64,000 nt of DNA from Candidatus Omnitrophota bacterium (lineage in GTDB: Bacteria; Omnitrophota; Omnitrophia; Omnitrophales; Aquincolibacteriaceae). The DNA lies in the NCBI GenBank assembly GCA_049324575.1, contig JBMONI010000004.1:43960-107959 (forward strand). The letters are read 5' to 3'. The notes under the pieces were generated by a model. It did not search any database. It worked only from the letters and a program-made list of their open reading frames with translations, and was not told where the DNA came from. Below are positions 6,425 through 59,373 of the stretch, one piece after another (position 1 is the first letter of the stretch; each line of letters begins with the position of its first letter). The translations under genes and the position numbers were made by a program.

Positions 6425-6490
6425 AAACAAAACTGCGGCCATGCAGTCCGCCTACTTCTGTAGGGCAGGTTTAAACCTGCCCTACAGGTT
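6425..6490 (-). terminator. Putative intrinsic terminator of the giant gene: 30-nt perfect palindrome followed by a second hairpin and a T-run
   Basis: CTGTAGGGCAGGTTTAAACCTGCCCTACAG at 6458..6487 lies 28-57 nt downstream of the TAA at 6517-6515. The minus strand then reads CTGCATGGCCGCAGTTTTGTTTTTG (5-bp stem, T-run). Confidence 0.5.
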
Positions 6491-6514
6491 TTGAGGAACC
6501 GACTCGAATCCCGA

Positions 6515-36902: not shown

Positions 36903-36978
36903 TGGTGGACCCGACCGGGATCGAACCGGTGGCCTCCACAATGCGAATGTGGCGCTCTCCCAGCTGAGCTACGGGCCC
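36903..36978 (-). tRNA. tRNA-Ala (anticodon CGC)
   Basis: Reverse complement is GGGCCCGTAGCTCAGCTGGGAGAGCGCCACATTCGCATTGTGGAGGCCACCGGTTCGATCCCGGTCGGGTCCACCA. It has a 7-bp acceptor stem with the G3:U70 alanine identity pair, a D-loop with GG, anticodon loop TTCGCAT (CGC), T-loop TTCGATC and an encoded CCA. Confidence 0.9.
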
Positions 36979-37008: not shown

Positions 37009-37045
37009 GGGGTATTATACACAAATCCCCCGCCTTGACTACGCT
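37009..37045 (-). promoter_or_regulatory. Possible sigma70-like promoter for tRNA-Ala (perfect TATAAT -10; weak -35)
   Basis: The minus strand reads ...GTAGTCAAGGCGGGGGATTTGTGTATAATACCCCG... about 35 nt upstream of the mature tRNA 5' end. The -35 element is poor. Confidence 0.25.
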
Positions 37046-37881
37046 GTTTTGGAAACCCCGGCCTCCGCCAGATAAGCCGCCAGGGCGCGCAGGGACTCCT
37101 CCCGTTCCTTCTCATGAAAGATCTCGTGATAGAACTTGGAAAAAACCTTCATGACCTTGCGCGGACTCCGGATCTTGGAAAAGATCTCCTTCGTGGCTCC
37201 GAAATCCACGACCCGCTCGTCCCCCGCCAGCAATCCGTAGACCGGGAACGGGACGTTCCAGGAACCCGATCCGAGCAGATAGTCGCTTTGATCGATCATG
37301 GCGTGAAGAAGGCGCGTCGAGACCTTGCGGCGCACGAACGGGTCCTTCTTGTATTTTTCCATTTCCTCCTCGTCATGCGTAAGGAACGGAGGATAGACCG
37401 GATTCATATAGGAAAAACGCGGAATGGATTCGCTGAACGTCCGGTTGAGGTGTTTCAGGATCTTCGGGATCACGATCCCGAAGCAGGGCGAAAAAAGGAA
37501 AAGCGCCCGGATGCGCTCCGGCCGGCGGAGCGCGTAGGAGAAAGCGACCAATCCGCCGAGGCTGTTCCCGGCAACCAGGTAGGGCCCGGCCGCCTGACGC
37601 TCTTTTTCGAGCATCTCGATGAAAGCGTCGGCGTCCTTCAAAAAATCTTCGAAGGTCTCGACATACATCTCCTGCCCCTCGGAGCGGCCGTGGCCCCGGT
37701 AATCGAAGGCGGCGGTCGAAAAGCCGAGCTTCTCGGCCTCATGATCGACATTGGCAAAGCGGCCGGAATGTTCGCCGAGGCCGTGCAGGATCAAAAGCCA
37801 CGGTTTGCCCGCTTCCCCGGCACGGACCCGGTAAAAAAGCCGGGTCCCGTCGAAAGTGCGAAAATATCCCATGTCCTTCAT
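37039..37881 (-). CDS. Alpha/beta-hydrolase, lysophospholipase/monoacylglycerol-lipase-like
   Basis: MKDMGYFRTFDGTRLFYRV...LILHGLGEHSGRF...GNSLGG (GxSxG nucleophile elbow). ATG at 37881-37879 overlaps the upstream gene's TGA (ATGA overlap). The track's longer N-terminal extension to 38391 is Arg/Gly-rich and overlaps the acyl-CoA synthetase gene, so I reject it. Confidence 0.8.
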   Translation of the reverse strand: MKDMGYFRTFDGTRLFYRVRAGEAGKPWLLILHGLGEHSGRFANVDHEAEKLGFSTAAFDYRGHGRSEGQEMYVETFEDFLKDADAFIEMLEKERQAAGPYLVAGNSLGGLVAFSYALRRPERIRALFLFSPCFGIVIPKILKHLNRTFSESIPRFSYMNPVYPPFLTHDEEEMEKYKKDPFVRRKVSTRLLHAMIDQSDYLLGSGSWNVPFPVYGLLAGDERVVDFGATKEIFSKIRSPRKVMKVFSKFYHEIFHEKEREESLRALAAYLAEAGVSKTA

Positions 37882-39710
37882 AGGGCCCCCGACGCCGCCT
37901 GAGCCTGGCGTCCGCGCGCATAAAGCACTTCGACCGCCGCATGATAATGATCGGCGATCACGCGGCGTCGCAGTTTCATCGTCGGCGTCATTTCTCCCCG
38001 CCCCTGAGTGAATTCTTCCTCGATCAGCGCCACGAATTTCACTTGCTGGAAGGACGGGCAATCGCTCAAACGGCCCCGGACACTCGTTTCGACATGCTCC
38101 AGGATCTTCGGAGCTTGAAGAATTTCCGCATAACCCGTTTCCCGGATGCCGAGATCGCGGGCCAGCGAAAGGATCATCTCCCGTTCGGGCACAACGAGCG
38201 CCACCAGATAGGGCCGCCGGTCCCCCAGGATCACGACCTGGCGAATCAAGGGATCCTCCAGAAGACAGGCCTCGAGCGGCTGCGGCGCGATATTCTTGCC
38301 GGCCGCGGTAATAATGATGTCTTTCTTTCGGTCCGTGATCCACAAATAACCGTCCGCGTCGAGACGCCCGATGTCGCCGGTGCGGAACCAATCGCCGTCG
38401 AAGCTCTCTCGCGTCACCGCTTCATGGTTCCAATAACCCTGCATGACGCAAGGCCCCCGGGTCAGGATCTCCCCGTCCTCGGCGACTTTCACCTCGACGC
38501 CGGGAATACATCGGCCGACCGAGCCGAAGCGCACGTTTTCAATCGCATTCGCCGAGATCACCGGCGAGGTCTCGGTGAGTCCGTAGCCTTCCAGAATCAC
38601 CCACCCGATCGCATCGAAGAATTCCGCGATCTCTTTGCCGAGCGGAGCGCCTCCGGAAACGAAAAAGCGGATCCGGCCTCCGAGCTCGGCGCGGATCTTC
38701 CCGAAAAAGAGGGCCTTGCCGATCCCGTAGGCCAGAAGCGCGAGCCAGTCCACCCGCTCCCCGCGGCGGCGATTGGCCTTTACGGCGCACGCGTTCTTGA
38801 GCAGGGCCAGGATGAGGTTCCGCAGAAAACCGGGTTTGGCGCGCACGGCCCGATCGATCTTCTCGCGGATCTTCTCGAAAAACCTCGGGACCGCGATCAC
38901 GACCGTCGGACGGACCCGGCGGACATCCTCGGCCACGGTCTGCATCCCGCGAGCATAGGCGATCGTTGCGCCGGAGGAGAGCATGAAATAATAACCGGCC
39001 ATCCGTTCAAAAATATGGCTCAGCGGAAGGAAGGAAAGACACGTGTCGGTATCCCGGATATGGATCGGGGTCCTGGACCCCTCGATATTCTTTAGAATAT
39101 TCCCGTGGGTCAGCATCACGCCCTTGGGCTCCCCCGTCGTCCCGGAAGTGTAGATCAGGGTCGCGAGATCGGCGCTCGCCACACGCACGAGCTGTGTCCG
39201 CACATCGAAACCCGCGTCCGGCTCTTCCGCGGCAATCTTCATAAAATCTTCGAAGCGCACCCGTTTCGGATGCTCCCCTTCCACATCATGGAAAGTGATG
39301 ACCTTGAGGATCTGGGGATTGCGGTCGAGAAGCGGCAGGAGTTTTTTCCACTGCTCGGGGCCGGAAATAAAAAGGACCTTGATCTCCGAATCGCGCAAAA
39401 TGTAATCGATCTCGAAGGCCGCCGTCGTCGGGTAGACTGGAACGACGACCGCGCCAAGCGCTAGCGCAGCCAGATCGGCATAGGTCCATTCCGGCATATT
39501 CTCGGATAAAATGCCGACGCGGTCCGTTTTACTGATGCCGATCTTCCATAAGGCCTGCGCCGTCCGGACGACTTGGCCGGCCCATTGCGTCCAGGAAAGC
39601 GCACGGCGTTTTCGGGGATCCTGGGGATCGAGGGTCAGGAGGGCCTTCCGCTTTCCATACCGCTCCGCGGAAAAGAAGAACATCTGAGCAAGGTTCTGTG
39701 GCTCCGTCAT
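37878..39710 (-). CDS. Long-chain-fatty-acid--CoA ligase (AMP-forming acyl-CoA synthetase)
   Basis: AMP-binding signature LIYTSGTTGEPKGVMLTHGN; also GYGLTETS, TGDIGRLDADGYLWITDRKKD and MKLRR. Start chosen at ATG 39710 (MTEPQNLAQMFFFSAERYG). The track's alternative upstream ATG is at 39788. Confidence 0.85.
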   Translation of the reverse strand: MTEPQNLAQMFFFSAERYGKRKALLTLDPQDPRKRRALSWTQWAGQVVRTAQALWKIGISKTDRVGILSENMPEWTYADLAALALGAVVVPVYPTTAAFEIDYILRDSEIKVLFISGPEQWKKLLPLLDRNPQILKVITFHDVEGEHPKRVRFEDFMKIAAEEPDAGFDVRTQLVRVASADLATLIYTSGTTGEPKGVMLTHGNILKNIEGSRTPIHIRDTDTCLSFLPLSHIFERMAGYYFMLSSGATIAYARGMQTVAEDVRRVRPTVVIAVPRFFEKIREKIDRAVRAKPGFLRNLILALLKNACAVKANRRRGERVDWLALLAYGIGKALFFGKIRAELGGRIRFFVSGGAPLGKEIAEFFDAIGWVILEGYGLTETSPVISANAIENVRFGSVGRCIPGVEVKVAEDGEILTRGPCVMQGYWNHEAVTRESFDGDWFRTGDIGRLDADGYLWITDRKKDIIITAAGKNIAPQPLEACLLEDPLIRQVVILGDRRPYLVALVVPEREMILSLARDLGIRETGYAEILQAPKILEHVETSVRGRLSDCPSFQQVKFVALIEEEFTQGRGEMTPTMKLRRRVIADHYHAAVEVLYARGRQAQAASGAL

Positions 39711-39723
39711 GGGCTCTCGAGAA

Positions 39724-40446
39724 TCAAAACTCTTCGTTCTCAGGAGGAGGTTTAACCGCCACGGTTCCCGCCGCGGTCCCGGCGTCATCCTTCACGGCCG
39801 GAGAAGCCGTCGTGGAAACCGTTTGTTTGGGAGATCCCGTTTTGCTTACGGCCGTCTGGGTCTCAGTTTTAACGGCCGCAGCCGTTTTTTCCGCGCCGGC
39901 CGTCAAAGTCGACGTCGCTTTCGCGAGCGGCGAAGAACCCGGCTGTTTCAAGTCCGGGGCCGCGGCTTGGGCATCCTTCTTTCCGGCTTCCGCAGGGCTC
40001 CCGGCATCGGCTTCCTCTTTGCGGATCTCTTCCAGGATCCGCTCATGCACATTGGCCTGGCGCATCATCTGGCTCAGGGCCGCATTGCCCGCCGCGCCGG
40101 CTCCGCTCGTCTGGATCGCGCTGACTTGCCGCAGGAGGCGCGTGATATTCGTATCGACGCCGCCCGCCGGACCGGCTACGGCCGGGGTTTTCGTCGCCGT
40201 GTAAATCTTCGGAACCTTAGGAATGCGGTAGACCGTCGGAACCGCCCCGGCTTTCATCGCTCTGGGAACGGCCGTCCCCGCACCGGTATTGAGATCCCCC
40301 ACTGCGCTGGACGCGCTGGTTTCGACCGTTTTCGATGTTTCGGCGGTTTTAGAACGGCTTGCCTTGGGCTTCAACGAAAATAACATGATAAGGACAAGGA
40401 TGCCGATCCCCCCGAGGATAAGCGCCGCAACGATCTTGTTCTTCAT
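39724..40446 (-). CDS. Hypothetical membrane-anchored protein with a low-complexity Ala/Thr/Lys-rich extracytoplasmic region
   Basis: Start MKNKIVAALILGGIGILVLIMLFSLKP (ATG 40446-40444, ATGA overlap with the upstream stop). The rest is TAETSKTVETSASS...AAAVKTETQTAVSK low complexity. The track ORF extends further upstream into the enoyl-CoA hydratase gene, which I reject. Confidence 0.5.
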   Translation of the reverse strand: MKNKIVAALILGGIGILVLIMLFSLKPKASRSKTAETSKTVETSASSAVGDLNTGAGTAVPRAMKAGAVPTVYRIPKVPKIYTATKTPAVAGPAGGVDTNITRLLRQVSAIQTSGAGAAGNAALSQMMRQANVHERILEEIRKEEADAGSPAEAGKKDAQAAAPDLKQPGSSPLAKATSTLTAGAEKTAAAVKTETQTAVSKTGSPKQTVSTTASPAVKDDAGTAAGTVAVKPPPENEEF

Positions 40447-41246
40447 AGAAGCCCCTTCTCTGTCTTGTTGAATCGAGGTGTTCTTTTTTCGATAAAAGCC
40501 CGCAAACCCTCTTCCCGGTCCCGGGTCCCCGTCAGGCCTGAAAATAATTCTGATTCGATCTCTTCCCCCGGCCGGCCGCCGCGTTCCCGGGCGGCTTTTA
40601 AGGCTTTTTTGGCGGCGCCGATCGCCATCGCGCTCGCACGGCTCATGCGCTCTGAAAATCTTTCGGCTTTTTTCTGAAAGCCCCAATCGCTTTCCAGATA
40701 ATCGACCCCGCCGGCTCGAAAAAACTCCCGGGCCGGCACCGGATCCCCCGTGAGGATCCACTTGCGAGCCGCCGATTCCCCGACCAGCCGGGGCAGGCGC
40801 TGGGTCCCGCCGAACCCCGGTATTATACCCAAACGGATCTCGGGTTGTGCAAAAACCGCGCTCCGGGCGGCGATCCTCAGATCGAAGGCCATTGCAAGTT
40901 CCATCCCGCCGCCGATACAGCGGCCGCGGATCGCCGCGACGGTCAGTTTCTCGGAGGCTTCGAGCTTTCGCAACAGCGCAGTCCCTTTGCGGACCACGCG
41001 GAGGACCTCCTCGGCGGTCCCGAGCCCCGCCATCGCTTTGATATCCACCCCGGCCGAAAAGATCTTCGGCAGAGCAGAGACCAGCAGGATCACGCGCACC
41101 TCGGCGTCCCCTTCGAGACCGGTCAGAATCGAGTCGAGTTCGTCGATCGCGTCCATCCCGAGAAGGTTCAAGGGAGGATGGTCCCAGACAATCTTGGCGA
41201 CCCCTGGCATACGTTCGAGTTTAAAAGAACTTGTCGTCGGCATCAT
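40443..41246 (-). CDS. Enoyl-CoA hydratase/isomerase (crotonase) family protein
   Basis: Crotonase-fold hallmarks: KIFSAGVDIKAM...AAIRGRCIGGGMELAMAFDLRIAARSAVFAQPEIRLGIIPGFGGTQRLPRLVG. Confidence 0.85.
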   Translation of the reverse strand: MMPTTSSFKLERMPGVAKIVWDHPPLNLLGMDAIDELDSILTGLEGDAEVRVILLVSALPKIFSAGVDIKAMAGLGTAEEVLRVVRKGTALLRKLEASEKLTVAAIRGRCIGGGMELAMAFDLRIAARSAVFAQPEIRLGIIPGFGGTQRLPRLVGESAARKWILTGDPVPAREFFRAGGVDYLESDWGFQKKAERFSERMSRASAMAIGAAKKALKAARERGGRPGEEIESELFSGLTGTRDREEGLRAFIEKRTPRFNKTEKGLL

Positions 41247-41274: not shown

Positions 41275-43287
41275 CTATTCTAGCACAAGCTGACGAATCT
41301 CTTCGAGGCGCTTTCGGGCCACGCTTTCGCCGGCCTGGATGAATTTTTTGGCCTGATGAAATTCGGTCCAATGGGCGTCCGGCACGTCGGGATGAAGATA
41401 GATATCCGCATCCTGCCCCGCCAACTGGGCCAGTTCATATTCCATAAAGAGGATTGCGTTCCCGATCACCGTCAGGAGGCTCGTGTCCTTCTGCTTCTTC
41501 ATCCGGAAGCGGGCGCCCTCGATCCACCGGGCAAGGCGCGGATGATGTGCGATCGTCCTGAGCTCGCGGTATTGGGACGCCGCGTCTGTCTCCGCGATCC
41601 TCTGGCGTTCCTTGTAATTGGCCAGGACATTGACCGCGATGATTTTCTTCACCCCGCGGCGGCGGAGCGGACTCACCGGAAGCGGGTCCACAATCCCTCC
41701 GTCTATATATTCCTGATCATGATAGCGGACCGGTTCGAAAACCCCCGGGATGGAAATGCTGGCGCGAAGGGCATCCACGACGCGCCCGCGCTCGAAGATG
41801 ACCTCTTCGGCGCTGGCCAGACGCGTTGCCGTGACCAGGACCGGGGTCCTGAGGTCCTGAAAGGTCGTATTCCCGAGATACCGCTCCATGAACTTGACCA
41901 TCTGCCGTCCTTTGATCACCCCCCGGACGAAGAACGAGAGATCCCGAAAGCCGATCAGTTTGGCGAACGCCGCGCGCTGGGAATCCAGAGAACAGGCGAT
42001 CTCCTCGAGTCGGTCGGCTTCGATCCCGGATGCCCAGAAAGCTCCCAGGAACGCGCCGATGCTCGAGCCCGCCACGATATCGACAGGAATATTCTCGCGC
42101 TCGAGGACCCGCAGGATCCCGATATGGGCAAGGCCGTACGCAGCCCCGCTTCCCAGGGCAAGCCCGATCAATTTTCCGGCGAAATCCCGCGCGAGATAAT
42201 GCACGGCGCGGTGGTACCGAGCAGGCTCTTGCGCCGCATCGGGAACGACATTGGAGATCCGGAAACTGATCCGCTTTTCGATCTCTGCCATCCGGGCGAC
42301 GCTCGAGGCGTCCGCCCACCGGGCGAGCACGCGAATATCGCTCGGGCTGAATTTATATTCCTCCTGGAATTTCTGGAGTGAAAACGACATTTTCCGAAGC
42401 TCCCCGAAATCCTGGTCCGCAAAAAGGTAGATCGTATCGGTATCCTGCAGGACCGCTTTCAACAAGGGGTCCGGCATTGCCTCCGCGCGGATCATGACAT
42501 GGTCGAAATGTTCGGTAAAATGCGCGAGGATCCTGCGCAGCGGGTGCTCGTCATGCGCTTCGGCCTCCCGGATATCGATATTCACATAGGCATACCCGGA
42601 AAGATACGGAACGGAGCGGAAGCGGCCCTCCTGCGGGCCCTCGCTCAAGGCGAACGGTTGCATTTTCTCGGCCGGGATCCCCCGGGGCACCGCGCGCCCC
42701 CCGCGGGCGTTCAGGTCGATCAGAACGACCGAACTTTTCGTTTCTTTGACGAGCGCCGCGCAAAGATCCGAAATAAACTCCACCGTATCCGGCTCTCCTT
42801 CGCGAGCGATCAGCGTGCCGATCCGCACTTCACGCGCATTCTTGGCTCGCCGCGTGAGCCGATGCCCGAGCGAGCGGTTCAGGTAGACCACGACCGCGGG
42901 AATGTCCCGGGCCAGCACCTTGAAGTCCTCTTTTTCGATCCTGAGAAGGATGCCGTCCCGCTTGGCTTCGACCGTCACACTGTGGGGAAGATCGTTCAGG
43001 ATGGAGATCTCGCCGAAGTGTTCTCCGCGATAGGCATAAAAAAGCGTACTTTCGGTCCCGGACGGCTGGGCCGCGGCCGAGACGCGGAAACGCCCGGCGA
43101 TCACGATATAGAAAGCGTCCGCCGACTGGCCCTGCCGGTAAACGATATCGCCCCGGCGGTACTCGACAAAACGCGCGCATTTTTCGATCTGGCGGAGTTC
43201 GGACGGAGTCAGAGACGCAAAAAAAGGAATGTCGGCAGGCAGACGATTCTCGGCCTCATTTTTCCGGTTAAAGCGAAAGAAATCCAT
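41275..43287 (-). CDS. Cyclic-nucleotide-binding domain fused to a patatin-like phospholipase (NTE/RssA-like)
   Basis: N-terminal cNMP-binding-like region (YRQGQSADAFYIVIAGRFRV...GEISIL). Patatin motifs GLALGSGAAYGLAHIG (Gly-rich oxyanion) and GSSIGAFLG (GxSxG), then DGG (YIDGGIVDPLP). Confidence 0.8.
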   Translation of the reverse strand: MDFFRFNRKNEAENRLPADIPFFASLTPSELRQIEKCARFVEYRRGDIVYRQGQSADAFYIVIAGRFRVSAAAQPSGTESTLFYAYRGEHFGEISILNDLPHSVTVEAKRDGILLRIEKEDFKVLARDIPAVVVYLNRSLGHRLTRRAKNAREVRIGTLIAREGEPDTVEFISDLCAALVKETKSSVVLIDLNARGGRAVPRGIPAEKMQPFALSEGPQEGRFRSVPYLSGYAYVNIDIREAEAHDEHPLRRILAHFTEHFDHVMIRAEAMPDPLLKAVLQDTDTIYLFADQDFGELRKMSFSLQKFQEEYKFSPSDIRVLARWADASSVARMAEIEKRISFRISNVVPDAAQEPARYHRAVHYLARDFAGKLIGLALGSGAAYGLAHIGILRVLERENIPVDIVAGSSIGAFLGAFWASGIEADRLEEIACSLDSQRAAFAKLIGFRDLSFFVRGVIKGRQMVKFMERYLGNTTFQDLRTPVLVTATRLASAEEVIFERGRVVDALRASISIPGVFEPVRYHDQEYIDGGIVDPLPVSPLRRRGVKKIIAVNVLANYKERQRIAETDAASQYRELRTIAHHPRLARWIEGARFRMKKQKDTSLLTVIGNAILFMEYELAQLAGQDADIYLHPDVPDAHWTEFHQAKKFIQAGESVARKRLEEIRQLVLE

Positions 43288-43440
43288 ACTTTAATTATCG
43301 GAATCCGGGTGGGTCCGCTTAACATGCTCCCCGGAACATTTCCTACGTCGCAAGCCATCCGGAAACGGTTTGATTTCGAGGACGAGAAAACGGCCTGTCA
43401 GAAAAAAACAGACCGCGGACGATTGGGAGGAGAGGACGGG

Positions 43441-43472
43441 AAAAACGGCGCGCCCCGAGAGGAAAAAGGGGC
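43441..43472 (-). terminator. Putative intrinsic terminator downstream of the PilZ gene
   Basis: Minus strand GCCCCTTTTTCCTCTCGGGGC hairpin followed by GCGCCGTTTTT, 17-48 nt after the TAA at 43491-43489. Confidence 0.35.
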
Positions 43473-43488
43473 AAAACGCGATCCTTAT

Positions 43489-43881
43489 TTATTTGGATCC
43501 CTGAATATCCTCGGGATCGGAAAAATCATTAACCTTGGTCTCAAGCCAATGATTGTAGGCGTAGTCCAGAACCCGGAATTTATCGACGGGGTCCATCATC
43601 ACGAACCGGACGCCCTGATCGTATCCCTGGTTCTTTCCTTCCGAGACCCGGGACCACATCACCTTGCCGGTCGTTTTGACGGGCTTCGGATCGTCGGGAA
43701 TATCGATCTCGAGATCGAGAAGGGTCCCGGTGCGCACGTCGGTCGTGGAGTTCATCTTGAGTCCGTCGCGGGAAAGATCACGGCTGAGGCTGATCCCCTT
43801 CGCAGCGTCATCTTCGGACGATTTGTAGCGGACGCTCATGAAAGCATCGAATCTCTTGAACTTCCTGCGCTCTTTTTCCAT
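43489..43881 (-). CDS. PilZ-domain protein (c-di-GMP receptor)
   Basis: RxxxR motif (ERRKFKRFD) and D-x-S-x-x-G motif (DLSRDGLKM) in a 130-aa single-domain protein. Confidence 0.75.
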   Translation of the reverse strand: MEKERRKFKRFDAFMSVRYKSSEDDAAKGISLSRDLSRDGLKMNSTTDVRTGTLLDLEIDIPDDPKPVKTTGKVMWSRVSEGKNQGYDQGVRFVMMDPVDKFRVLDYAYNHWLETKVNDFSDPEDIQGSK

Positions 43882-44029
43882 GGCTCCCCCTCCTCTCGGG
43901 TTATTTACTTATCGGCACGATGTAAAAGTTCTTAATAAAGTATTAAAATAATGGGGCAAAAAAAAACCCCTAAATCCATTAAAACTATAGCATAGGATCC
44001 CCGAATTTCAAGGGCAGGGGGCGAATTAT

Positions 44030-44527
44030 TTAGCGGTAATTCGTAAACTGGATAGGGATGGGAAGCTCATGAGCCCGGAGGGCCGAAATGACGGCCTGGA
44101 GGTCATCTTTGCTCTTGGACGTGACTCTCACCTGCTCGCCCTGAATAGCCGCCTGGACCTTCAGTTTGGTCTCTTTGATGATCCGGACGATGTCCTTGGC
44201 CGTCTCCTGCGGGATCCCGCACACCAGCTCGACTTCCTGCCGGAGGGTCCCCTCAAAAGCCGCCTCGGGATCCTTGAACTTCAGCGCCTTGATCGCGATC
44301 TTGCGCGCTGCCAGGCGGGTTTTCAGGATGTCCTGCACGTTACGGAGTTTCAGATCGTCATCGGCCAGGATCTTGATCTTTTTTTCGTTGCGGAGGAACT
44401 CGAGCGCGCTTTTCGAATCCTTGAAATCATAGCGGGTCTTCATTTCCTTGACGGCTTGATTGACCGCATTATCGATCTCCTGGAGGTCGATCTCGGACAC
44501 GATATCGAAGGAATTCTGCTGGGCCAT
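44030..44527 (-). CDS. yajQ: YajQ-family (UPF0234) nucleotide/c-di-GMP-binding protein
   Basis: MAQQNSFDIVSEIDLQEIDNAVNQAVKEMKTRYDFKDSKS... is a characteristic YajQ N-terminus, and the ~165-aa length fits. The track's longer ORF to 44779 is an Arg-rich extension overlapping the upstream PilZ gene, rejected. Confidence 0.8.
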   Translation of the reverse strand: MAQQNSFDIVSEIDLQEIDNAVNQAVKEMKTRYDFKDSKSALEFLRNEKKIKILADDDLKLRNVQDILKTRLAARKIAIKALKFKDPEAAFEGTLRQEVELVCGIPQETAKDIVRIIKETKLKVQAAIQGEQVRVTSKSKDDLQAVISALRAHELPIPIQFTNYR

Positions 44528-44529
44528 GT

Positions 44530-44910
44530 TCAGGCAAGGACCTTGAAACCTTTGTCGATCCTGTCTTCGATGAAATGCTTGAGCTGGTCCTGCTTCGCCT
44601 GTGAGAGCCCCACGAACTCGATCCCGGTATCGTAGGCAGCGATCTTGGACGAGCCCGGTATCTTGCGGCCGATGATCCAGCAGATCCGGGCCGGGCATTC
44701 GATCGAACCCTGGCCGTCCATCTCCAGGCGGACCTTGACCGCCTCGAATCGTTCTAGGGGCTCGGATTGGACGATGCAAACGCCGCCCGTGCCGACATTT
44801 TCGGTCACGGCATTAATGACCTTGCGGCCTTTCTCGACGTGGATCGTGACCTCGCACTTCAGCTGGATCCGGGGAAATTTCCGCTGATTGAAGCCGTCCC
44901 ACATAAGCAA
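44530..44910 (-). CDS. PilZ-domain protein (c-di-GMP receptor), second copy
   Basis: QRKFPRIQ (RxxxR) and ENVGTGGVCI (D/N-x-S/T-x-GG) motifs; 126 aa. Confidence 0.7.
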   Translation of the reverse strand: MLMWDGFNQRKFPRIQLKCEVTIHVEKGRKVINAVTENVGTGGVCIVQSEPLERFEAVKVRLEMDGQGSIECPARICWIIGRKIPGSSKIAAYDTGIEFVGLSQAKQDQLKHFIEDRIDKGFKVLA

Positions 44911-44916
44911 GCGCTC

Positions 44917-45843
44917 CTATTCGGTGATCGAACGGACGAAAGCGTCCTGGAAGGTTTTAGAAAATTCGGTCTGCCGGAACTGATGAAGTTTTTCCTGCCC
45001 CATCTGGAAGGTCGAGAACCGTCCGAGATAGACCGTGTGGTATTTGCGCTCCCCGCTCGACTCCCTCCGCATGAAGGCCGTGAAACCGGCGGCTTTCAGT
45101 TTTTCGACCAGCGGGCGTGCATCGGTCTCATTGACATAGGTCGCGATTTGGATCACAAACGTCCGTTGAGCCGGTGCCGCGGTCCCTTGGGTCTTCGCTC
45201 CCTCGACGGGCGTCAGGACCCCCTCGGAACTTTCAAAGGTCGTCGCCACCGGAACCGCGGTTTCCGCGGACGGAGCGTTTTGCTGCGATGGCTTGGCCGC
45301 GGTTTTTTTGGAAAGACCGCTCGAAGTGGACATGGCTTTTTCACGCTGGACATTTAAATAGTGAACGCCCCAGAAAAGGAGCGCGATCCCCGCGATCGAA
45401 AGGCACCACACCGCGATCCGCGCCGCATGGCGTCTCCGTGTCGTGACCAACCGGAGAAGGCCCTCGATCCAACCGTCCCAGAAATTCCCCGTGCGGGCGA
45501 TCGGCTGCGGGATCGCCGCGGCCGGAGACGAGGACGGTTTTTTGTAATAAGGTTCGGGCGGGCGGCTCGCAGCCGGCTGACTGATCACGACCTTGGGAGG
45601 CTCTTTGCGCGGGCTGTCGAAGAGGCCCGGCGCAGGGTCCCTGCCGGCCGGCGCAGCGAACGAACGGCCGGATTCCAGGGTCGGCAGTGAAGCTTTGGGA
45701 GGTACGGCCGGCGACGGGGCTTCTGTTTCCGTCGCGGACCCGCTCCGGCCATGATAATTCCCGTACAGCCGCTTCTGGATCTCTTCTTCCGTCAATTTTT
45801 TCATCGAACCGCTCTTTTTCCCGAATCCGCCGAGCAAACCCAT
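44917..45843 (-). CDS. SPOR-domain membrane protein (septal peptidoglycan binding)
   Basis: Single TM segment (IAVWCLSIAGIALLFWGVHYL), Pro/Ala-rich linker, and a C-terminal SPOR-like domain (FVIQIATYVNETDARPLVEKLKAAGFTAFMRRESSGERKYHTVYLGRFSTFQMGQEK). Confidence 0.7.
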   Translation of the reverse strand: MGLLGGFGKKSGSMKKLTEEEIQKRLYGNYHGRSGSATETEAPSPAVPPKASLPTLESGRSFAAPAGRDPAPGLFDSPRKEPPKVVISQPAASRPPEPYYKKPSSSPAAAIPQPIARTGNFWDGWIEGLLRLVTTRRRHAARIAVWCLSIAGIALLFWGVHYLNVQREKAMSTSSGLSKKTAAKPSQQNAPSAETAVPVATTFESSEGVLTPVEGAKTQGTAAPAQRTFVIQIATYVNETDARPLVEKLKAAGFTAFMRRESSGERKYHTVYLGRFSTFQMGQEKLHQFRQTEFSKTFQDAFVRSITE

Positions 45844-45853
45844 GGGCCACCGC

Positions 45854-46369
45854 CTAGGCCGCTTGTTTTCCCGCCTTGGCCGAATGCGTTGAATTGTGAT
45901 TGAGATGGAATGAAAATTTCAAAAGTTCAAGGGAGCCCAGCGGCACTTTCGCCCGCTGAACGAAACCGCGTTTTTGGCAGATCTCGATCGCGCGGTGCAT
46001 CGCCGAGGTCGTCTTAAAGATCAGCTCGGAATAACCGACCTCCTGGCAAAAATGGATCGCGCGGTCCATGAGCTGCATACCGATCTTGCGTTTCCGGTAC
46101 TCCCGGTCCACGAAAAGCCGGCGCATGAGCGCTACGCGGTCGTCCTCTTTTTTGATCCCGACCGTGCCGATGATCCTCTTGCCGTCGACGGCGACAAAGA
46201 ACGCTTCGCCGAGCGCCCCGTAACTCGCGGGCAGACGCTGGAGATCCTCGGTCGGATATGCCGACGAAGAATCACCGAACTCCTCCTGCATGATCTTCGC
46301 CACGAGCTTCTGGATGGAAGGCTCTTCCCCCGCTTGATATCGACGGATCGTGATGGCCGACTGGTTCAT
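45854..46369 (-). CDS. GNAT-family N-acetyltransferase
   Basis: Start MNQSAITIRRYQAGEEPSIQKLVAKIM (ATG 46369-46367), followed by ...AFFVAVDGKRIIGTVGIK...RRLFVDREYRKRKIGMQLMDRAIHFCQEVGYSEL. The track's N-terminal extension to 46594 is poly-Arg and overlaps the upstream gene. Confidence 0.75.
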   Translation of the reverse strand: MNQSAITIRRYQAGEEPSIQKLVAKIMQEEFGDSSSAYPTEDLQRLPASYGALGEAFFVAVDGKRIIGTVGIKKEDDRVALMRRLFVDREYRKRKIGMQLMDRAIHFCQEVGYSELIFKTTSAMHRAIEICQKRGFVQRAKVPLGSLELLKFSFHLNHNSTHSAKAGKQAA

Positions 46370-46382
46370 GGGATCGGGGGTC

Positions 46383-46697
46383 CTATTTTTTGGGCTGCGC
46401 CGCTGCGCCCGCCGCCGGTTTCGCGCCCTTGGCCGGCGCCGCCGGAGCGGCTCCCGCGGCCGGTTTCGCCTCGGCCCCTGCCGCGGCGGCCGTTTCTTTC
46501 GGCTCTTTGGTCGCTTTGACTTTGATCTTCTGGCTCTTGACCTTCGGCATATTGTAGATCGAAGCACCCGCTTTCCAGCGTTTTTCTTTCTCAAGGCGGT
46601 GGAGCCGCTCGAGTTTTTTCAAAACATTACGGTGCTTCACACCGACGCTTTCGACTCTCAAACTGCGATGCTGTGACATAGTCCTGAACTCCTTCAA
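46383..46697 (-). CDS. Small basic protein with an Ala/Lys/Pro-rich (histone H1-like) C-terminal tail; hypothetical
   Basis: MKEFRTMSQHRSLRVESVGVKHRNVLKKLERLHRLEKEKRWKAG...AAGAEAKPAAGAAPAAPAKGAKPAAGAAAQPKK. No family recognised. Possibly nucleoid- or ribosome-associated. Confidence 0.45.
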   Translation of the reverse strand: MKEFRTMSQHRSLRVESVGVKHRNVLKKLERLHRLEKEKRWKAGASIYNMPKVKSQKIKVKATKEPKETAAAAGAEAKPAAGAAPAAPAKGAKPAAGAAAQPKK

Positions 46698-50070: not shown

Positions 50071-51465
50071 CTATTTCGAATGTCTGAACCCCGGACTCAA
50101 TATCCCGAGGCATGCTCCCATCAAAGCACACAATAATAACGACATATTCACATGGTCAAGCATAAAACTAATCGACGCATGCCCCAGGATCATCAATACC
50201 GGAACAAAAAAACCCATGCCAAAAAGAAACTGGAATCGACTTGGCGTCCTTTGGAGCATAAGAACAGACTCGATGAAAAATACTAGAATAAAAAGAAAAT
50301 AGAACCAAGCGCCGAGACCCTCTTCCGCGAGAATGGTCAAATAATGGTTCATGGCTTTATAATCCGCCATGTAAACGTTTTGGGGAGAGGTTTTTTTGAA
50401 AGTCTTTCGGTACGGATAATATCCTTTGGTGCCGACACCCCACACGGGGTTTTCTTTGAACATTTCTACCGCATAGTTCGCCCCCCGAATATTATGCGCG
50501 AACGATTGCGGCTCTTCCATCTCATCTTGGAGAGTGCTGACCTCTTGCAACGTTGCCTTAAAATCAATGTTCGTTTTCAAAAATAAAAATAATAAACAGG
50601 CTATTAAAACGCATGGGATGAAGATCCGTCTCGATCGATATTTTAAAATACAGCCCCCTATGAATGTTATTACTCCCATGAGAAAAAAAATGATGGTCCC
50701 ACGTGAATTGAACGCCAAAATCGCAATAAATGAACTACCAATGGTTAGGGCGGGTATTAAAATCTGAATCAGATGGATCTGCCCTTTAATCGGCCGCATC
50801 TTTTTTTCATCATCGAATTGCATGAAGGAATAAATAAAATAACTTATGGAAAGGAAGAAACCAACAGCGAGGACCTCTCCAATCCAGTTCGCGTGGAATC
50901 GATTAGAAATAAGGTATTTTTCAACCGCAGGATGGAAATAAAGCCAATCGGAAGCAAAGGGATTAAGCCGAATGTCATATGCAGAAAGACTTCCCCTCGT
51001 TATTAGTGAAGGCAAAGATAATGAGCATAAGAATAGAACCATCCCTATCGAAACCGAAACGATACCCACAGCTCGCTTTCGAGAAGCAGAAAACACATAA
51101 GCAAGCGCCATGGTTCCTAGACAGAAAAACCAGACGATCGGCTGCTGCGTAAAATTCTCAACAAGAACGATTTTTACGTCTTTGTCTGGCCCATTACTTG
51201 TCGCTGAAAGGAAATAGGCAAATCCCAATCTTATGATTTGGTAAATGCAGAATACACAAAACATCCCAAAACATAATGGGATTCTACGAAGGCTTAAACG
51301 CACATCGCTATTGGCGAAAACAAGAAACAAAACGAGGGTGGAAAAAACCAGTAAACAGCGCAACTCCGCTAACGCAAAAGAATCGTAACCTTTCGAAAGA
51401 AACAATGCTCCGAGCAAGGCTGAGAAAAAAAAATACGGAATTTGTCTCAGATGGCTATTGACCAC
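50071..51465 (-). CDS. O-antigen ligase-like (Wzy_C family) polytopic membrane protein, cassette 3 partner; visibly lower GC than its neighbours
   Basis: 10-12 hydrophobic helices. Wzy_C signature NHYLTILAEEGLGAWFYFLFILVFF in the C-terminal part. GTG start at 51465. Paralogous to 55286..56746 and 59610..61031. Confidence 0.7.
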   Translation of the reverse strand: MVNSHLRQIPYFFFSALLGALFLSKGYDSFALAELRCLLVFSTLVLFLVFANSDVRLSLRRIPLCFGMFCVFCIYQIIRLGFAYFLSATSNGPDKDVKIVLVENFTQQPIVWFFCLGTMALAYVFSASRKRAVGIVSVSIGMVLFLCSLSLPSLITRGSLSAYDIRLNPFASDWLYFHPAVEKYLISNRFHANWIGEVLAVGFFLSISYFIYSFMQFDDEKKMRPIKGQIHLIQILIPALTIGSSFIAILAFNSRGTIIFFLMGVITFIGGCILKYRSRRIFIPCVLIACLLFLFLKTNIDFKATLQEVSTLQDEMEEPQSFAHNIRGANYAVEMFKENPVWGVGTKGYYPYRKTFKKTSPQNVYMADYKAMNHYLTILAEEGLGAWFYFLFILVFFIESVLMLQRTPSRFQFLFGMGFFVPVLMILGHASISFMLDHVNMSLLLCALMGACLGILSPGFRHSK

Positions 51466-51507: not shown

Positions 51508-54500
51508 TCATTCCTGATCGACCCATTCGCAGCAATCACACCGGACCATTTTCTTCCCTTTGGGATCGGTCGGATCCAGTTCTTTCGCAGTTCCATTTGC
51601 TTCGCATATCTCCTCAGGCGCCGGTTCGTCTGGATCCTGCGGATTCTGTTCATCCGGATCAGGGCGGGTATCTCCGACAGACGAGCAAACTTTATCGCTT
51701 GAAATCCCACAAAGCTGAACCCCCTCGCCTTGGCAACATTTGTCTTGAGATTCATCATCCCCATCATCGGCGTCATCCCCCGGATCGGTGTCATCCCCAT
51801 CTTCATCGCATTTACACCCGCCGACCCCTTGGCATCCGCACATGGTTCCTTCTTCCATCGCCTTCGCAAGCTGTTGAGCCATCTGTTTATGAAGGTTTTC
51901 AACCGAATCATTGGGATCTGCATCTTGCCCTTCCATATGACACGGCGTTGTTACACATCTTTCCGGTTTCGCAGGTTCTTGTTTTATTTCTCCACCCTCA
52001 CCCTGGACCTTGCACATGCTCATCCCCGGACACGAGCAGTCTTCTCCCGGCGTATTGCAATTTTCGTCGCCCGGCTTACACCAGAATGCGCAGGGATTTT
52101 CGATCCCCCAGGCCATACAACGCGCGGTTTGGCGGTCATAAAGATGTTTCGTGCGTTCCGAATCGCTCTTCGACACGCATTCGCCGGTCCAATCACTGCC
52201 CCAGCTGCTCGATGGAGGTATCGGATCTCCGCCTTCAAGACAGCCTTCACCGATGAAACTCACATGACAGTAATTCCCCGCGGGACATTCGCTGTCCGCC
52301 GTGCAATATCCTCCGCCGCTTCCCGCTTTTTCGCAAACCGAATTTTGGCAGACATACCCCGCGGCACAATCCGTATCTTTCGCGCAGGAGGTCGATAATG
52401 AACAGGCACAATAGCCGGTCGTCAGATTGCATTTCCCGGTCCCTCCAGCAGAGGCACAGTCCGAATCCGCTTTGCACAGCGCGGTATTCTTTCGGCAATT
52501 TCCCTGCACACAACATTCGCCCGATCCACATGGAGCAGAAGCCGAACAAGCGTTGCCGAGCGGCTGACAAATCGGTTCCACCGCAGGACAGGTCGTTCCC
52601 TGGCAAGTCGGCTGAAGACAATATTCCCCGGGCTTGCATCGAACACTGCCGCACTGCTCCCCCGTCGTGTTTTCCTGACAGATACCGCCGTAAGTGCTTT
52701 TGACGCAAATAAGATTGCAAGACGCTGAAGAACCCGTCGTCGGACAGCAATTGTTATGCGAAGTGCACGGGGTGATCCCCGCCTGCCCAAGACAGTAGCC
52801 GAACGTATCCGCAGAGGCTTGTCTCTGGCAACTATACCCAAACGAGCAGTTCATGTCGTCCATACACCGCCCGCCGGTGGTGTCAAAAACGCAAGAACCC
52901 AAGGCATCAGATGGTTTGATCTTTTGACATTTTTCGTAATTTTTGCAATCAGCGGCCGTCATGCAAGTCCCGACAGGCTTGCAATCTCCGAGCCCCGCGC
53001 TGCTCTGGAAGCACACATTTCCCGCCATACAATGCGCCGTTTCACGGCATTTTCCCGAAGGAATATTTTCGCAAAGTCCGTAGTCGTCGGAAGGCGCCGT
53101 ACGTTTGCAATACCCATTTTCACCGCAAAGAGAATCATCCTGGCAGGCATTGGCCTTGTTTTGGCATACTCCAGCAGCCCCTTCGGCACCCGCCTGGATA
53201 CAGGATTCATAGGATCGGCACCAGCTGTCATCTTCGCAAGTCCCCGGCACACGGCAGCGGCCGACATTCTCCCGGCCGCTCTTGATGAAACATTCCTCGC
53301 CGGCCGAACAGTCCCCTGGAGTCTCGCATTGTCCCTCGGCCATCGGCGTGCAAAGCCCGAGATCCTTATCGATATCTTCATGGGCCAGGTATTGGCAATA
53401 TTCCCCGTCTTGACACGGGTCCGAAAACTGACAGGCGTTCGCGTTCGCGGAACTCACCTTACAGACCCCGAAACGCTCGTTCGAAGAACTCCGGACGCAT
53501 TCCCGTCCGCTTGGACAATCCGCATTGGTACCGCACTGGCCGGGCGCCGGCGTTCCGCAACGGCCGTAATCATCGGCAGCGCTGACCTTCATACAAACCG
53601 TCCCGGCCCCGCCGCAATCCGAATCGGAGCCGCAGCGCGCAGGATCCGTAATGCATCGCCCGTATTGATCGGCATTGCGGAATTTTTGACAGAGCTCACC
53701 ATTCGCGCAACCGTCCGCGCCCTGGATATCGTAGCGGCAGGATCGTTCCGGATCGATCGAGCACTGCTGAGCAATGCAAACCATGCTTTCGCCGCAGTCG
53801 GCGTTCTCCTGACACTCGACATTCACGCACCGCGCGTCATAGCAAAACTGGTTCGCTCCGCATTCGCTGTCGGAGCCGCAACGGTCATAACACCGTCCGT
53901 CATAGCAGGCCCGCGGCGCGTCCGAGGGGCAATCCGTCGTGTAGGTTCCATCCCCGAGGTCGGTTTCTTGACAAGGTTCGCTGCAACCCCAATCGTCCGA
54001 GCACTCCGTCCCAGGCCCACCGCAAATGCTGTCGATCTTGCAATAGCAAGTATGCGTGGATGAGTTACACGCATGACCGGCCGCCGCACAATCCGAATCG
54101 AACGAACAGCGGTTTGAACGGTCCCCGACCACACAAGCCCCCCCCGGCTCCGAAGGCGAAGACCTGAGGCAAAATTGATCGCTCGGACAATCCGTATGCG
54201 CCGCGCATTCGCGGTCCGCGCAGCGCCCGTAGGGATCGCCCGGGCTGTCCTGTTTGCAGATCTTGGTCGGACTGTTGCAGTCCGTATCCGCCGTGCAATC
54301 GCCGGAAGACTTCCCGCGACAGATCCCGTATGCCCCCCCGCTCTTGTTCTCGCAAATATCCCCCGGCTTGCAGTCCCCGTCCGTTTGACATTCGCACCGC
54401 CCGGCCTCGACCGTGCCGCCGCTCACCGGCCCATCGGAACAGACGGAATAATCCTTGCCGGGCTTCACGCGGCAAACTTGACAGCCGGCACAATCGGTAT

Positions 54501-55134
54501 TGGTTTGGCAGGTCTTGGAAGGATCCAGCTGGCATTTGCCCGTGCTCAGTTCACAGACTTCTTCCGGTTCGCATTCGCTGTCCGCGCGACATCCGTCGAT
54601 ACAACCGCCCTGAGGCGCTCCCGAGGTCGTCCTTTTACAGAACTTTCCGGCGGGACAGTCTTCGCTGCTTTGACAGCCCGAAAAACATTTTCCGTATTCG
54701 TCACCGACCGATTCCTTGAGACAATGCTGGCCTGACTCGCAATCTCCATGGGTCTCGCATTCACCGCTCGATTTTCCGCGGCACAAGCCGTAAGGATCCG
54801 CCGAATTGGCCTTAAAACAGCTGTCCCCTGATCTGCAGTGCTCATCTTCTTGGCATTCGCATCGCCCTTCGGGAACATCCGCGCCGCTCACCGGGCCATC
54901 TACACATTTTTTAGGACTTGCGGCCAAATCACATACCTGACAACCAGAACAATCATCTGAACGAGTGCATTGATCTCGATCTTCAGTAATGCATATCTTA
55001 AGACTGCCGGTCTGTTTGCAATATTGGCCTGAGGGGCAATCGGAATCGACGGCACAAAAGAGAGCGAACGCGGTGACGGGAAAGGATAAAAAGACAGTAG
55101 CGACAAGAACGAACTGTATTAACCGCTTATACAA
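51508..55134 (-). CDS. Secreted cysteine-rich repeat protein (1,208 aa) with acidic Asp/Glu/Pro-rich C-terminal region
   Basis: Signal peptide MYKRLIQFVLVATVFLSFPVTAFA (TTG start at 55134 with AGGAGG 8 nt upstream). It contains dozens of ~35-aa units with pattern C-x3-4-(D/S)-x-(D/E)-C-x2-G-x2-C-x6-12-(Y/F)G-x-C, e.g. CETHGDCESGQHCLKESVGDEYGKC. The tail is DEDGDDTDPGDDADDGDDE...PDPDEQNPQDPDEP. Confidence 0.75.
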   Translation of the reverse strand: MYKRLIQFVLVATVFLSFPVTAFALFCAVDSDCPSGQYCKQTGSLKICITEDRDQCTRSDDCSGCQVCDLAASPKKCVDGPVSGADVPEGRCECQEDEHCRSGDSCFKANSADPYGLCRGKSSGECETHGDCESGQHCLKESVGDEYGKCFSGCQSSEDCPAGKFCKRTTSGAPQGGCIDGCRADSECEPEEVCELSTGKCQLDPSKTCQTNTDCAGCQVCRVKPGKDYSVCSDGPVSGGTVEAGRCECQTDGDCKPGDICENKSGGAYGICRGKSSGDCTADTDCNSPTKICKQDSPGDPYGRCADRECAAHTDCPSDQFCLRSSPSEPGGACVVGDRSNRCSFDSDCAAAGHACNSSTHTCYCKIDSICGGPGTECSDDWGCSEPCQETDLGDGTYTTDCPSDAPRACYDGRCYDRCGSDSECGANQFCYDARCVNVECQENADCGESMVCIAQQCSIDPERSCRYDIQGADGCANGELCQKFRNADQYGRCITDPARCGSDSDCGGAGTVCMKVSAADDYGRCGTPAPGQCGTNADCPSGRECVRSSSNERFGVCKVSSANANACQFSDPCQDGEYCQYLAHEDIDKDLGLCTPMAEGQCETPGDCSAGEECFIKSGRENVGRCRVPGTCEDDSWCRSYESCIQAGAEGAAGVCQNKANACQDDSLCGENGYCKRTAPSDDYGLCENIPSGKCRETAHCMAGNVCFQSSAGLGDCKPVGTCMTAADCKNYEKCQKIKPSDALGSCVFDTTGGRCMDDMNCSFGYSCQRQASADTFGYCLGQAGITPCTSHNNCCPTTGSSASCNLICVKSTYGGICQENTTGEQCGSVRCKPGEYCLQPTCQGTTCPAVEPICQPLGNACSASAPCGSGECCVQGNCRKNTALCKADSDCASAGGTGKCNLTTGYCACSLSTSCAKDTDCAAGYVCQNSVCEKAGSGGGYCTADSECPAGNYCHVSFIGEGCLEGGDPIPPSSSWGSDWTGECVSKSDSERTKHLYDRQTARCMAWGIENPCAFWCKPGDENCNTPGEDCSCPGMSMCKVQGEGGEIKQEPAKPERCVTTPCHMEGQDADPNDSVENLHKQMAQQLAKAMEEGTMCGCQGVGGCKCDEDGDDTDPGDDADDGDDESQDKCCQGEGVQLCGISSDKVCSSVGDTRPDPDEQNPQDPDEPAPEEICEANGTAKELDPTDPKGKKMVRCDCCEWVDQE

Positions 55135-59364: not shown

Positions 59365-59373
59365 TTTTTCCAC

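Follow-up and report, generated by a model that had tools for sequence, protein, structure and literature searches.

A PilZ–YajQ–PilZ gene trio conserved across the Omnitrophota, divided between two transcription units and suggestive of cyclic-di-GMP output

Do neighbouring genes from cyclic-di-GMP (c-di-GMP) effector families constitute a signalling module, or do they share a locus without sharing a function? The question is raised by a 64 kb stretch of contig JBMONI010000004.1 from a Candidatus Omnitrophota bacterium (the window, 64,000 nucleotides in full), where two single-domain PilZ genes flank a gene of the YajQ family at 43489-44910. Omnitrophota are uncultured, ultra-small bacteria that probably depend on hosts. 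An earlier note on this DNA, made from the sequence alone, had read the genes as an output-side c-di-GMP module. We find that their arrangement is conserved across the phylum and is therefore deliberate and not a product of chance. On balance, we favour the reading that the trio serves as an output-side c-di-GMP module, which Omnitrophota have conserved at the level of the phylum and which is split between two transcription units.

The three consecutive open reading frames (ORFs) lie on the minus strand, as does every gene in this part of the window. Along the direction of transcription they are PilZ-A (44530..44904, 124 amino acids), YajQ/DUF520 (44030..44527, 165 amino acids) and PilZ-B (43489..43881, 130 amino acids). 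The family assignments made earlier passed a hidden Markov model (HMM) check, each protein scoring above the curated cut-offs: 50.6 bits for PilZ-A and 46.9 bits for PilZ-B against Pfam PilZ (PF07238, cut-off 22.5 bits), and 206.5 bits for YajQ against PF04461 (cut-off 23.2 bits). YajQ covers the whole PF04461 profile (positions 1-161 of 161) and scores 201.6 bits against the NCBIfam model NF003819, 'YajQ family cyclic di-GMP-binding protein', whose cut-off is 146. In both PilZ proteins a single Pfam domain spans nearly the entire chain, and the N-terminal PilZN/YcgR_N domain is absent. The components of the trio are ordinary members of known families, correctly named already in public records, and each matches a protein of a Candidatus Omnitrophota metagenome-assembled genome with 100% identity. 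Apart from these three genes, an HMM scan of all six frames detected neither a PilZ nor a YajQ in the window.

The PilZ-A start is the ATG at 44904, which yields a protein beginning MWDG in agreement with NCBI protein P0121. The ORF-finder call, a TTG two codons upstream at 44910, was rejected on the same ground. The junction between PilZ-A and YajQ reads TGA-AC-ATG, with 2 nucleotides (nt) between the PilZ-A stop (44532-44530) and the YajQ ATG (44527), where the earlier note had counted 1. The spacing between YajQ and PilZ-B is 148 nt.

To follow the arrangement through the phylum, one genome per GTDB species was scanned with PilZ-B. The scan yielded 73 loci, 72 of them labelled Omnitrophota or 'uncultured bacterium' and one Anammoxibacter, to which HMMs built from the three homologue sets were applied. 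The complete series PilZ-A, YajQ, PilZ-B is present in the same order and on the same strand in 62 of the 73 species-level loci. The remaining 11 include several that are cut by contig ends and a few real rearrangements. In the 62 genomes the gap between PilZ-A and YajQ is -4 to 23 nt (median 11.5), and that between YajQ and PilZ-B is 157-807 nt (median 252).

The trio is part of a larger conserved block, in which a small basic protein, a GNAT acetyltransferase and a SPOR-domain protein precede PilZ-A and YajQ, and PilZ-B is followed by an optional GlpK, a patatin-like phospholipase with a cyclic mononucleotide (cNMP)-binding domain and an acyl-CoA ligase. Among the 73 loci, SPOR (63), GNAT (63) and the small basic protein (58) are found upstream of PilZ-A, and the cNMP-patatin (62), the acyl-CoA ligase (35) and a hydrolase (10) downstream of PilZ-B. 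The outer flanks are not conserved. Six window genes upstream of the block match none of the 73 loci; on the downstream side an ORF for an unknown protein matches none and an enoyl-CoA hydratase two. The order has been maintained over deep divergence, since identities to the window proteins fall to 35-53% for PilZ-A, 33-45% for the patatin and 26-42% for SPOR. Identity is about 67-77% for YajQ (best 120 matches) and 70-83% across the phylum for PilZ-B.

Metagenomes were scanned with the PilZ-A alignment, and the best 80 of 289 relatives were considered. Seventy of these had room downstream. YajQ immediately follows PilZ-A in 44 of the 70, with a gap of -23 to 22 nt, and the full trio is present in 36 further contigs among those 44.

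The exceptions are informative with regard to YajQ. In L109 and L112 the genes run SPOR–PilZ-A–PilZ-B–GlpK and YajQ is absent, and in L060 a YjbQ gene occupies the YajQ slot. The PilZ pair can therefore do without YajQ, which is sometimes missing or replaced. Paired single-domain PilZ genes are more widespread than the insertion of YajQ, a clade-specific though widely distributed member. In L020 and L052, PilZ-B keeps its glpK and patatin neighbours though PilZ-A and YajQ are absent.

Two further contexts of the PilZ-A family were observed. In another lineage (L111 2311-3592), the genes after a PilZ-A family gene encode, in order, a small exosortase-system-associated protein (TIGR04073), another single-domain PilZ and a small Cys-rich (CxxC...YYCxxxC) protein. 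This TIGR04073-type two-PilZ cassette recurs in L118, L125, L126, L129, L132, L146 and L152, and is a different conserved cassette. In L106, L110, L123 and L147, a PilZ-A family gene directly follows a TIGR00282 (YmdB-like) metallophosphoesterase, and the next gene resembles dxs or gltX by its N-terminal sequence, a housekeeping context.

The two PilZ proteins differ in their motifs. Both had been credited with RxxxR and D/NxSxxG; the first motif is indeed found in both, the second in PilZ-B only. In PilZ-B, RxxxR reads R6KFKR10 (R5-R6-K-F-K-R10) and is retained in 120 of 120 homologues. The second motif, D35-L-S37-R-D-G40, fits [D/N]hSxxG, and D-L-S-R-x-G is invariant in the 120. The C-terminal helix, MMDPVDKFRVLDYAYNHWLETKVNDF, is invariant too. 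While a sequence search of the PDB with PilZ-B returned no matches, the AlphaFold2 (AF2) model computed from the family alignment, with a predicted local distance difference test score (pLDDT) of 81.8, shows a six-strand barrel and a helix at residues 98-119. Foldseek matched this model to the PilZ domains of MotI (top), Alg44, YcgR and BcsA, and to MapZ. The models of PilZ-B and PilZ-A match the PilZ domains of MotI, Alg44, YcgR, MrkH and MapZ, all of them c-di-GMP binders, with a Foldseek probability of 1.00. PilZ-B is very probably a true c-di-GMP receptor, because its motifs and modelled fold are canonical and the extreme constraint on it extends to the C-terminal helix. The only PilZ-B-like gene found outside Omnitrophota (47% identity) is that of Candidatus Anammoxibacter (L071 6001-7505), and it is directly followed by a gene for a 293-amino-acid membrane GGDEF diguanylate cyclase.

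In PilZ-A, RxxxR reads R8KFPR12 and is found in 66 of 67 orthologues. Immediately ahead of it, an N-terminal W-D-G is invariant or nearly so. The second motif is N36-V-G38-T-G-G41, which does not fit [D/N]hSxxG. The motif register was set by aligning PilZ-A, with phmmer, to 4i86, a PilZ domain from cellulose synthase (VTEDLSMGG). The Ser is replaced by Gly in all 67 orthologues, where the family motif is T-E-N-V-G-x-G-G, and TENxGxGG is kept in more distant relatives too. In MapZ the corresponding residue, Ser37, contacts the ligand. A PDB search with the PilZ-A sequence gave marginal matches only. The AF2 model from the family alignment (pLDDT 79.6) has a six-strand barrel and a C-terminal helix (102-117), and its best PDB fold matches are the PilZ domains of MrkH, YcgR and MotI.

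YajQ has full-length matches in the PDB to 8k4i (STM0435), 5b7w (XC_3703) and 1in0 (HI1034), with E-values from 6e-35 to 2.5e-32 over residues 6-165. The equivalents of the STM0435 residues R33, R137 and D138 are K36, K140 and D141, and are conserved. These positions are conserved family-wide and do not predict binding, and their mutants lose just 2-4-fold in affinity. It was reported that XC_3703 binds c-di-GMP with a dissociation constant (Kd) of 2 µM, and that PA4395 and Smlt4090 bind it too, while YajQ proteins of E. coli, Bacillus and Clostridium preferred ATP or GTP over c-di-GMP (An et al. 2014). The same study stated that the residues critical for c-di-GMP binding by YajQ were unknown. 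STM0435 binds c-di-GMP with a Kd of 8.4 µM. The description of YajQ proteins as c-di-GMP-binding regulators thus holds for those of Xanthomonas, Pseudomonas and Stenotrophomonas. It cannot be carried over to the window protein, because only some family members bind c-di-GMP preferentially and family membership is insufficient to infer an effector role. YajQ and PilZ-A are candidate c-di-GMP binders. In E. coli, the only comparison genome outside Omnitrophota for the adjacency of PilZ and YajQ, yajQ is solitary between panE and yajR, with no PilZ gene beside it, and bears the annotation 'nucleotide binding protein'.

Although the three genes do stand in a row, they do not form a single unit, as the earlier note had implied. 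PilZ-A and YajQ close a five-gene operon, and PilZ-B is separately promoted. The operon is headed by the small basic protein (46383-46697, minus strand; TIGR04137, 63.2 bits), followed by the GNAT acetyltransferase (45854-46369, minus strand) and the SPOR-domain protein (44917-45843, minus strand), both assigned by Pfam. Successive gaps of 13, 10, 12 and 2 nt lead from the small basic protein to YajQ, and this spacing points to one operon. The TIGR04137 family has been described for Chlamydia and Verrucomicrobia.

For PilZ-B, a consensus scan revealed a putative sigma-70 promoter with an extended -10 element, TTGAAA-16-TG-n-TATAGT, at 43984..44011 (minus strand), just past the yajQ stop. Gibbs sampling recovered the corresponding signal, TTGTAAA-N13-TGTGTTATAnTT, in essentially all of 63 intergenic regions between YajQ and PilZ-B. 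A second, sigma-28-like element, TTAAGAAC-N11-GCCGATAA (TTAA-N15-GCCGATAA), is located at 43909..43935 (minus strand) and ends 27 nt before the PilZ-B ATG; across loci the leader motif upstream of PilZ-B takes the form T(T)AA-N15-G(C/T)CGATA(A). The regular expression T[TA]A[ATG]-N14-16-G[CT]CGATA matched 32 times in the 300 nt ahead of PilZ-B over the set of 73 loci. A hairpin with a T run at 43390..43416 (minus strand), between PilZ-B and the patatin gene, resembles a terminator by consensus match only.

The sigma-28-like signal reappears at the phospholipase. In the window, TAAG-N15-TCCGATAA at 43295..43321 (minus strand) ends 7 nt before the patatin ATG (43287), and the family consensus ahead of patatin genes is TAAGGTGA-N12-GCCGATAA. 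The full regular expression is found within 260 nt upstream of 41 of 62 patatin genes. A -10-like heptamer, [GT][CT]CGATA, lies within 60 nt upstream of 46 of 52 mapped patatin starts, where 0.022 would be expected per such search interval, and in 40 of those 46 it is placed 7-13 nt before the start codon. A Shine-Dalgarno-like sequence precedes only 5 of 52 patatin genes, as opposed to 52 of 63 PilZ-B genes. The position of the -10-like element so close to the start, together with the lack of a Shine-Dalgarno sequence, suggests that the patatin mRNA is leaderless or near-leaderless and made from an alternative-sigma promoter.

The consensus recognised by sigma-28 factors of the FliA/SigD/WhiG class is TAAA-N15-GCCGATAA. 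Both window sites have a TAAA-like -35 and a GCCGATAA-like -10 about 15 nt apart. Over the 73 loci (1.53 Mb, both strands) there are 78 distinct sigma-28-like sites, compared with 11.8±3.6 in block shuffles; they fall mostly at the PilZ-B and patatin positions and are rare elsewhere. The 64 kb window holds three such sites with a properly spaced -35-like element, and two of them are those of PilZ-B and the patatin gene. The third, TTTAA-N-GTCGATAC at 2834 (minus strand), is inside the coding region of a HEAT-repeat ORF and is possibly due to chance. No sigma-28-family sigma factor was noticed in the window, in which no dedicated search for one was made. The likeness to known sigma-28 promoters is in the -35 and -10 elements; they differ in that the window targets are not flagellar and the patatin site implies a leaderless mRNA.

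A riboswitch in the PilZ-B leader was also considered and rejected. The whole window has no Rfam match at the gathering threshold, the region 43250-44060 has none at E <= 1, and the leader folds no better than shuffled sequences (z = -0.65). The conserved leader elements are better read as promoters than as a riboswitch.

What might the module act on? The gene following PilZ-B in the window encodes a protein of 670 amino acids (41275..43287, minus strand) with an N-terminal cNMP_binding domain (PF00027, 70.7 bits) and a C-terminal patatin domain (PF01734, 112.1 bits), as the earlier note had recognised; the trio is transcriptionally upstream of it, not downstream. We take this architecture to be akin to that of NTE/PNPLA6. 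Of the NCBIfam models RssA comes closest, with 146 bits and thus below its equivalog cut-off of 272; a conserved PilZ neighbour and a sigma-28-like promoter abutting the start codon set the window gene apart from RssA-like patatins. Beyond it, likewise on the minus strand, are an enoyl-CoA hydratase (40443-41246), the ORF of the unknown protein (39724-40761), an AMP-binding acyl-CoA ligase (37878-39788) and a Hydrolase_4 alpha/beta hydrolase ORF (37039-38391), named by Pfam except for the unknown protein. The glycerol kinase gene glpK separates PilZ-B from the patatin gene in about half of the loci; L026 and L031 have a GlpQ-like gene there too, recognised by sequence motif only. Patatin, GlpK/GlpQ, acyl-CoA ligase, hydrolase and enoyl-CoA hydratase form a set for phospholipid breakdown and salvage. 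The proposed link of the trio to lipid functions has gained support from these data: 62 of the 73 loci have the patatin after PilZ-B, frequently with glpK in between and the acyl-CoA ligase beyond, and the PilZ-B and patatin genes share the sigma-28-like motif. From this conserved adjacency and the shared promoter-like motif, we infer that the trio may be connected to lipid turnover.

Taken together, these features suggest the following mechanism. The operon of the small basic protein, GNAT, SPOR, PilZ-A and YajQ would be one unit of the module. PilZ-A and YajQ would be translationally coupled, therefore made together, and most likely a working pair. PilZ-A would act as an adaptor with an intact RxxxR arm and a family-specific NhGxGG motif, and YajQ as its partner or co-receptor. 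The other unit would consist of PilZ-B, by motifs and model a canonical c-di-GMP-binding single-domain adaptor, whose invariant C-terminal helix is a likely docking surface for a conserved partner. PilZ-B would be transcribed from its own sigma-70 promoter and, in many genomes, also from a sigma-28-like promoter of the patatin type. PilZ-B would read c-di-GMP and the cyclic-nucleotide-binding (CNB) domain of the phospholipase a cyclic mononucleotide, and both signals would act on one programme of phospholipid breakdown and salvage under alternative-sigma control.

Two extensions can be envisaged. PilZ-A and YajQ could constitute a two-protein c-di-GMP receptor, in which Ser could become Gly since YajQ supplies part of the pocket or the output surface; we regard this as rather improbable. 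In a related reading, PilZ-B and the cNMP-gated phospholipase may be part of an 'attack or late-stage' regulon of the sigma-28 type in these host-dependent nanobacteria. The sigma-28 late genes of Chlamydia and the attack-phase regulon of Bdellovibrio are parallels.

Several observations weigh against the module reading. Members of the YajQ family differ in ligand, and no residue signature divides binders from non-binders. As judged from its motif, PilZ-A is without the ligand-contacting Ser. YajQ is absent (L109, L112) or replaced (by YjbQ or TIGR04073) between orthologous PilZ-A and PilZ-B genes, and only about half of the loci have the sigma-28-like motif before PilZ-B. Gene order, even when conserved, is by itself no proof of functional interaction. 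Finally, no diguanylate cyclase was found within the 64 kb window: as first stated, the window holds no GGDEF/EAL enzyme, the Pfam scans of the larger ORFs, including both giant ORFs, yielding no GGDEF, EAL or HD-GYP domain, and no GG[DE]EF or HD-GYP motif being present in any frame. In favour of the reading, the Anammoxibacter PilZ-B-like gene directly adjoins a GGDEF cyclase, and GGDEF domains were reported in many giant proteins of Omnitrophota (preprint 10.1101/2023.11.21.568195).

These considerations bear on the alternatives to a c-di-GMP module. We give practically no credence to the idea that chance alone placed the genes side by side in this one genome. PilZ genes are small and abundant, and nothing else speaks for chance, while order, strand and spacing recur in 62 of 73 species-level genomes and again in 36 additional contigs from metagenomes, the outer flanks being different. 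It is less easy to dismiss, though still unlikely, that the genes keep their order but are not functionally coupled. YajQ would then be a housekeeping nucleotide- or RNA-binding protein that just fills the last slot of the conserved operon of small basic protein, RimI-like GNAT and SPOR genes, and the PilZ proteins alone would take part in c-di-GMP signalling. Such a role would agree with the ATP or GTP preference of the E. coli, Bacillus and Clostridium proteins, with the annotation and PilZ-free setting of E. coli yajQ, with the loss or replacement of YajQ between PilZ-A and PilZ-B in several relatives, and with the family-wide, hence non-discriminating, conservation of the residues implicated in STM0435. 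It fits poorly with a PilZ-A–YajQ gap of at most 23 nt in all 62 + 44 cases, kept though PilZ-A is just 35-53% identical across lineages, and PilZ genes on both sides would be surprising for an unrelated housekeeping gene. Moreover, c-di-GMP binding with micromolar Kd is known for some YajQ proteins.

Other alternatives concern the PilZ proteins themselves. PilZ-A might be a degenerate, non-binding adaptor of the XAC1133/PA2960 type, leaving PilZ-B as the sole true c-di-GMP receptor of the trio. The Gly in place of the motif Ser, seen in all 67 orthologues and in all more distant relatives examined, would be accounted for, and in other PilZ lineages binding was lost along with these motifs. 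Yet RxxxR, the Asn, the hydrophobic h residue, the final Gly and the N-terminal W-D-G are invariant or nearly so, which is not expected of a ligand loop that had ceased to bind. Furthermore, the PilZ-A fold is a full canonical barrel with helix, unlike that of xPilZ proteins, and PA2989 binds c-di-GMP despite a substitution elsewhere in the second motif. We therefore hold a degenerate PilZ-A to be possible but doubtful. It is far less plausible that PilZ-B is a flagellar brake like YcgR or MotI within a sigma-28 flagellar regulon, even though the Joint Genome Institute (JGI) names several PilZ-B orthologues 'c-di-GMP-binding flagellar brake protein YcgR', MotI is the top fold match and the promoter motif is sigma-28-like. 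PilZ-B has 130 amino acids and a single domain without PilZN/YcgR_N, and its conserved neighbours are lipid genes and not flagellar ones. More than 70 species representatives yielded PilZ-B, and almost all of these carry the label Omnitrophota or uncultured bacterium; the Ace Lake Omnitrophota metagenome-assembled genomes, by contrast, contain no motility genes, and two phylum-wide genome studies make no mention of flagella.

The c-di-GMP module, as we read it, differs from the known systems of both effector families. The YajQ effectors XC_3703 of Xanthomonas campestris (with the LysR-type regulator XC_2801), CdgL of Lysobacter, PA4395, Smlt4090 and STM0435 of Salmonella are of the same family and size as the window protein, which aligns over its full length to 5b7w and 8k4i with E-values of about 1e-34. 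These known effectors work together with LysR-type regulators or influence the expression of flagellar genes, and the literature searched shows no PilZ partner for them. In the window, by contrast, YajQ is coupled to a PilZ gene, a second PilZ gene comes after it, and the conserved block has no transcription factor. Single-domain PilZ adaptors such as MapZ/PA4608 (with CheR1), PA0012, HapZ and DgrA/DgrB have the same barrel, C-terminal helix and RxxxR, to which PilZ-B adds DxSxxG. MapZ docks its partner by the C-terminal helix, and by analogy the same may be expected of the helices of PilZ-A and PilZ-B. In contrast to the usual adaptors, PilZ-B is far more conserved, PilZ-A has its fixed Ser-to-Gly change, and the two form a conserved pair of distant paralogues.

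The literature that mentions both YajQ and PilZ does not describe the gene pair, and two phylum-wide genome studies of Omnitrophota are silent on PilZ, YajQ and c-di-GMP alike. That two effector families are coupled in a conserved way is new. So are, at the level of sequence, the Ser-to-Gly variant fixed across the PilZ-A family and the sigma-28-like signal common to PilZ-B and the apparently leaderless cNMP-patatin gene. YajQ is near-universal in bacteria and its role is disputed. The coupled PilZ–YajQ pair provides independent neighbourhood evidence that ties YajQ to the c-di-GMP network and points to a concrete, testable partner. A composite receptor, if real, would offer a physical mechanism for wiring YajQ into c-di-GMP signalling, and would explain the inconsistent binding by isolated YajQ proteins. 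That PilZ-B is so strongly conserved, and has a promoter motif in common with the cyclic-nucleotide-gated phospholipase, points to membrane-lipid turnover as a process on which two second messengers may converge.

A connection of the trio to the neighbouring giant proteins, also raised by the earlier note, has no support. The nearest giant gene, a 9994-amino-acid ORF (6515-36499, minus strand), is 7 kb away. The trio is transcriptionally upstream of it, the lipid genes and a tRNA gene lie in between, and no promoter motif common to the trio and the giant genes was found in the window. The tRNA gene, tRNA-Ala(CGC) at 36903-36978 (minus strand), separates the lipid cluster from the giant gene and marks a transcription-unit break. 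The sole Pfam match of the 9994-amino-acid ORF is a short PG_binding_1, and it fits the giant proteins reported for Omnitrophota. Directly downstream, a second giant ORF (1-6319, minus strand) with many HEAT repeats comprises at least 2106 codons and extends past the window start; the idea that the region 1-6500 is ORF-free, non-coding or recoded was rejected for this reason. With PG_binding_1 in one and HEAT repeats in the other as the only Pfam matches, neither window ORF contains a GGDEF domain. West-Roberts et al. (preprint 10.1101/2023.11.21.568195) described small pilZ genes immediately downstream of giant genes, beside sugar-transport genes, and proposed c-di-GMP signalling around giant genes as well. 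Those genes belong to the same phylum and domain family, but the window trio is upstream of the giant gene and not downstream, and the preprint does not mention YajQ. An HMM scan of the window detected no pilZ genes downstream of its giant gene.

The part of the window upstream of the conserved block contains further genes of note, all on the minus strand. Three paralogous Wzy_C (O-antigen ligase-like) membrane proteins are encoded at 50071-51465, 55286-56746 and 59610-61031. Interleaved with them are two large proteins, one of 1208 amino acids (51508-55134) with weak matches to DUF7107 and Cys-rich Dickkopf_N only, and one of 877 amino acids (56740-59373) without domain annotation. The alternation looks like a repeated envelope-glycan module. 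A second SPOR-domain protein (62398-63084) lies next to a partial glycosyl hydrolase family 1 ORF (63047-63817), which matches the C-terminal third of the family profile only (positions 284-449 of 453) and may be truncated or frameshifted.

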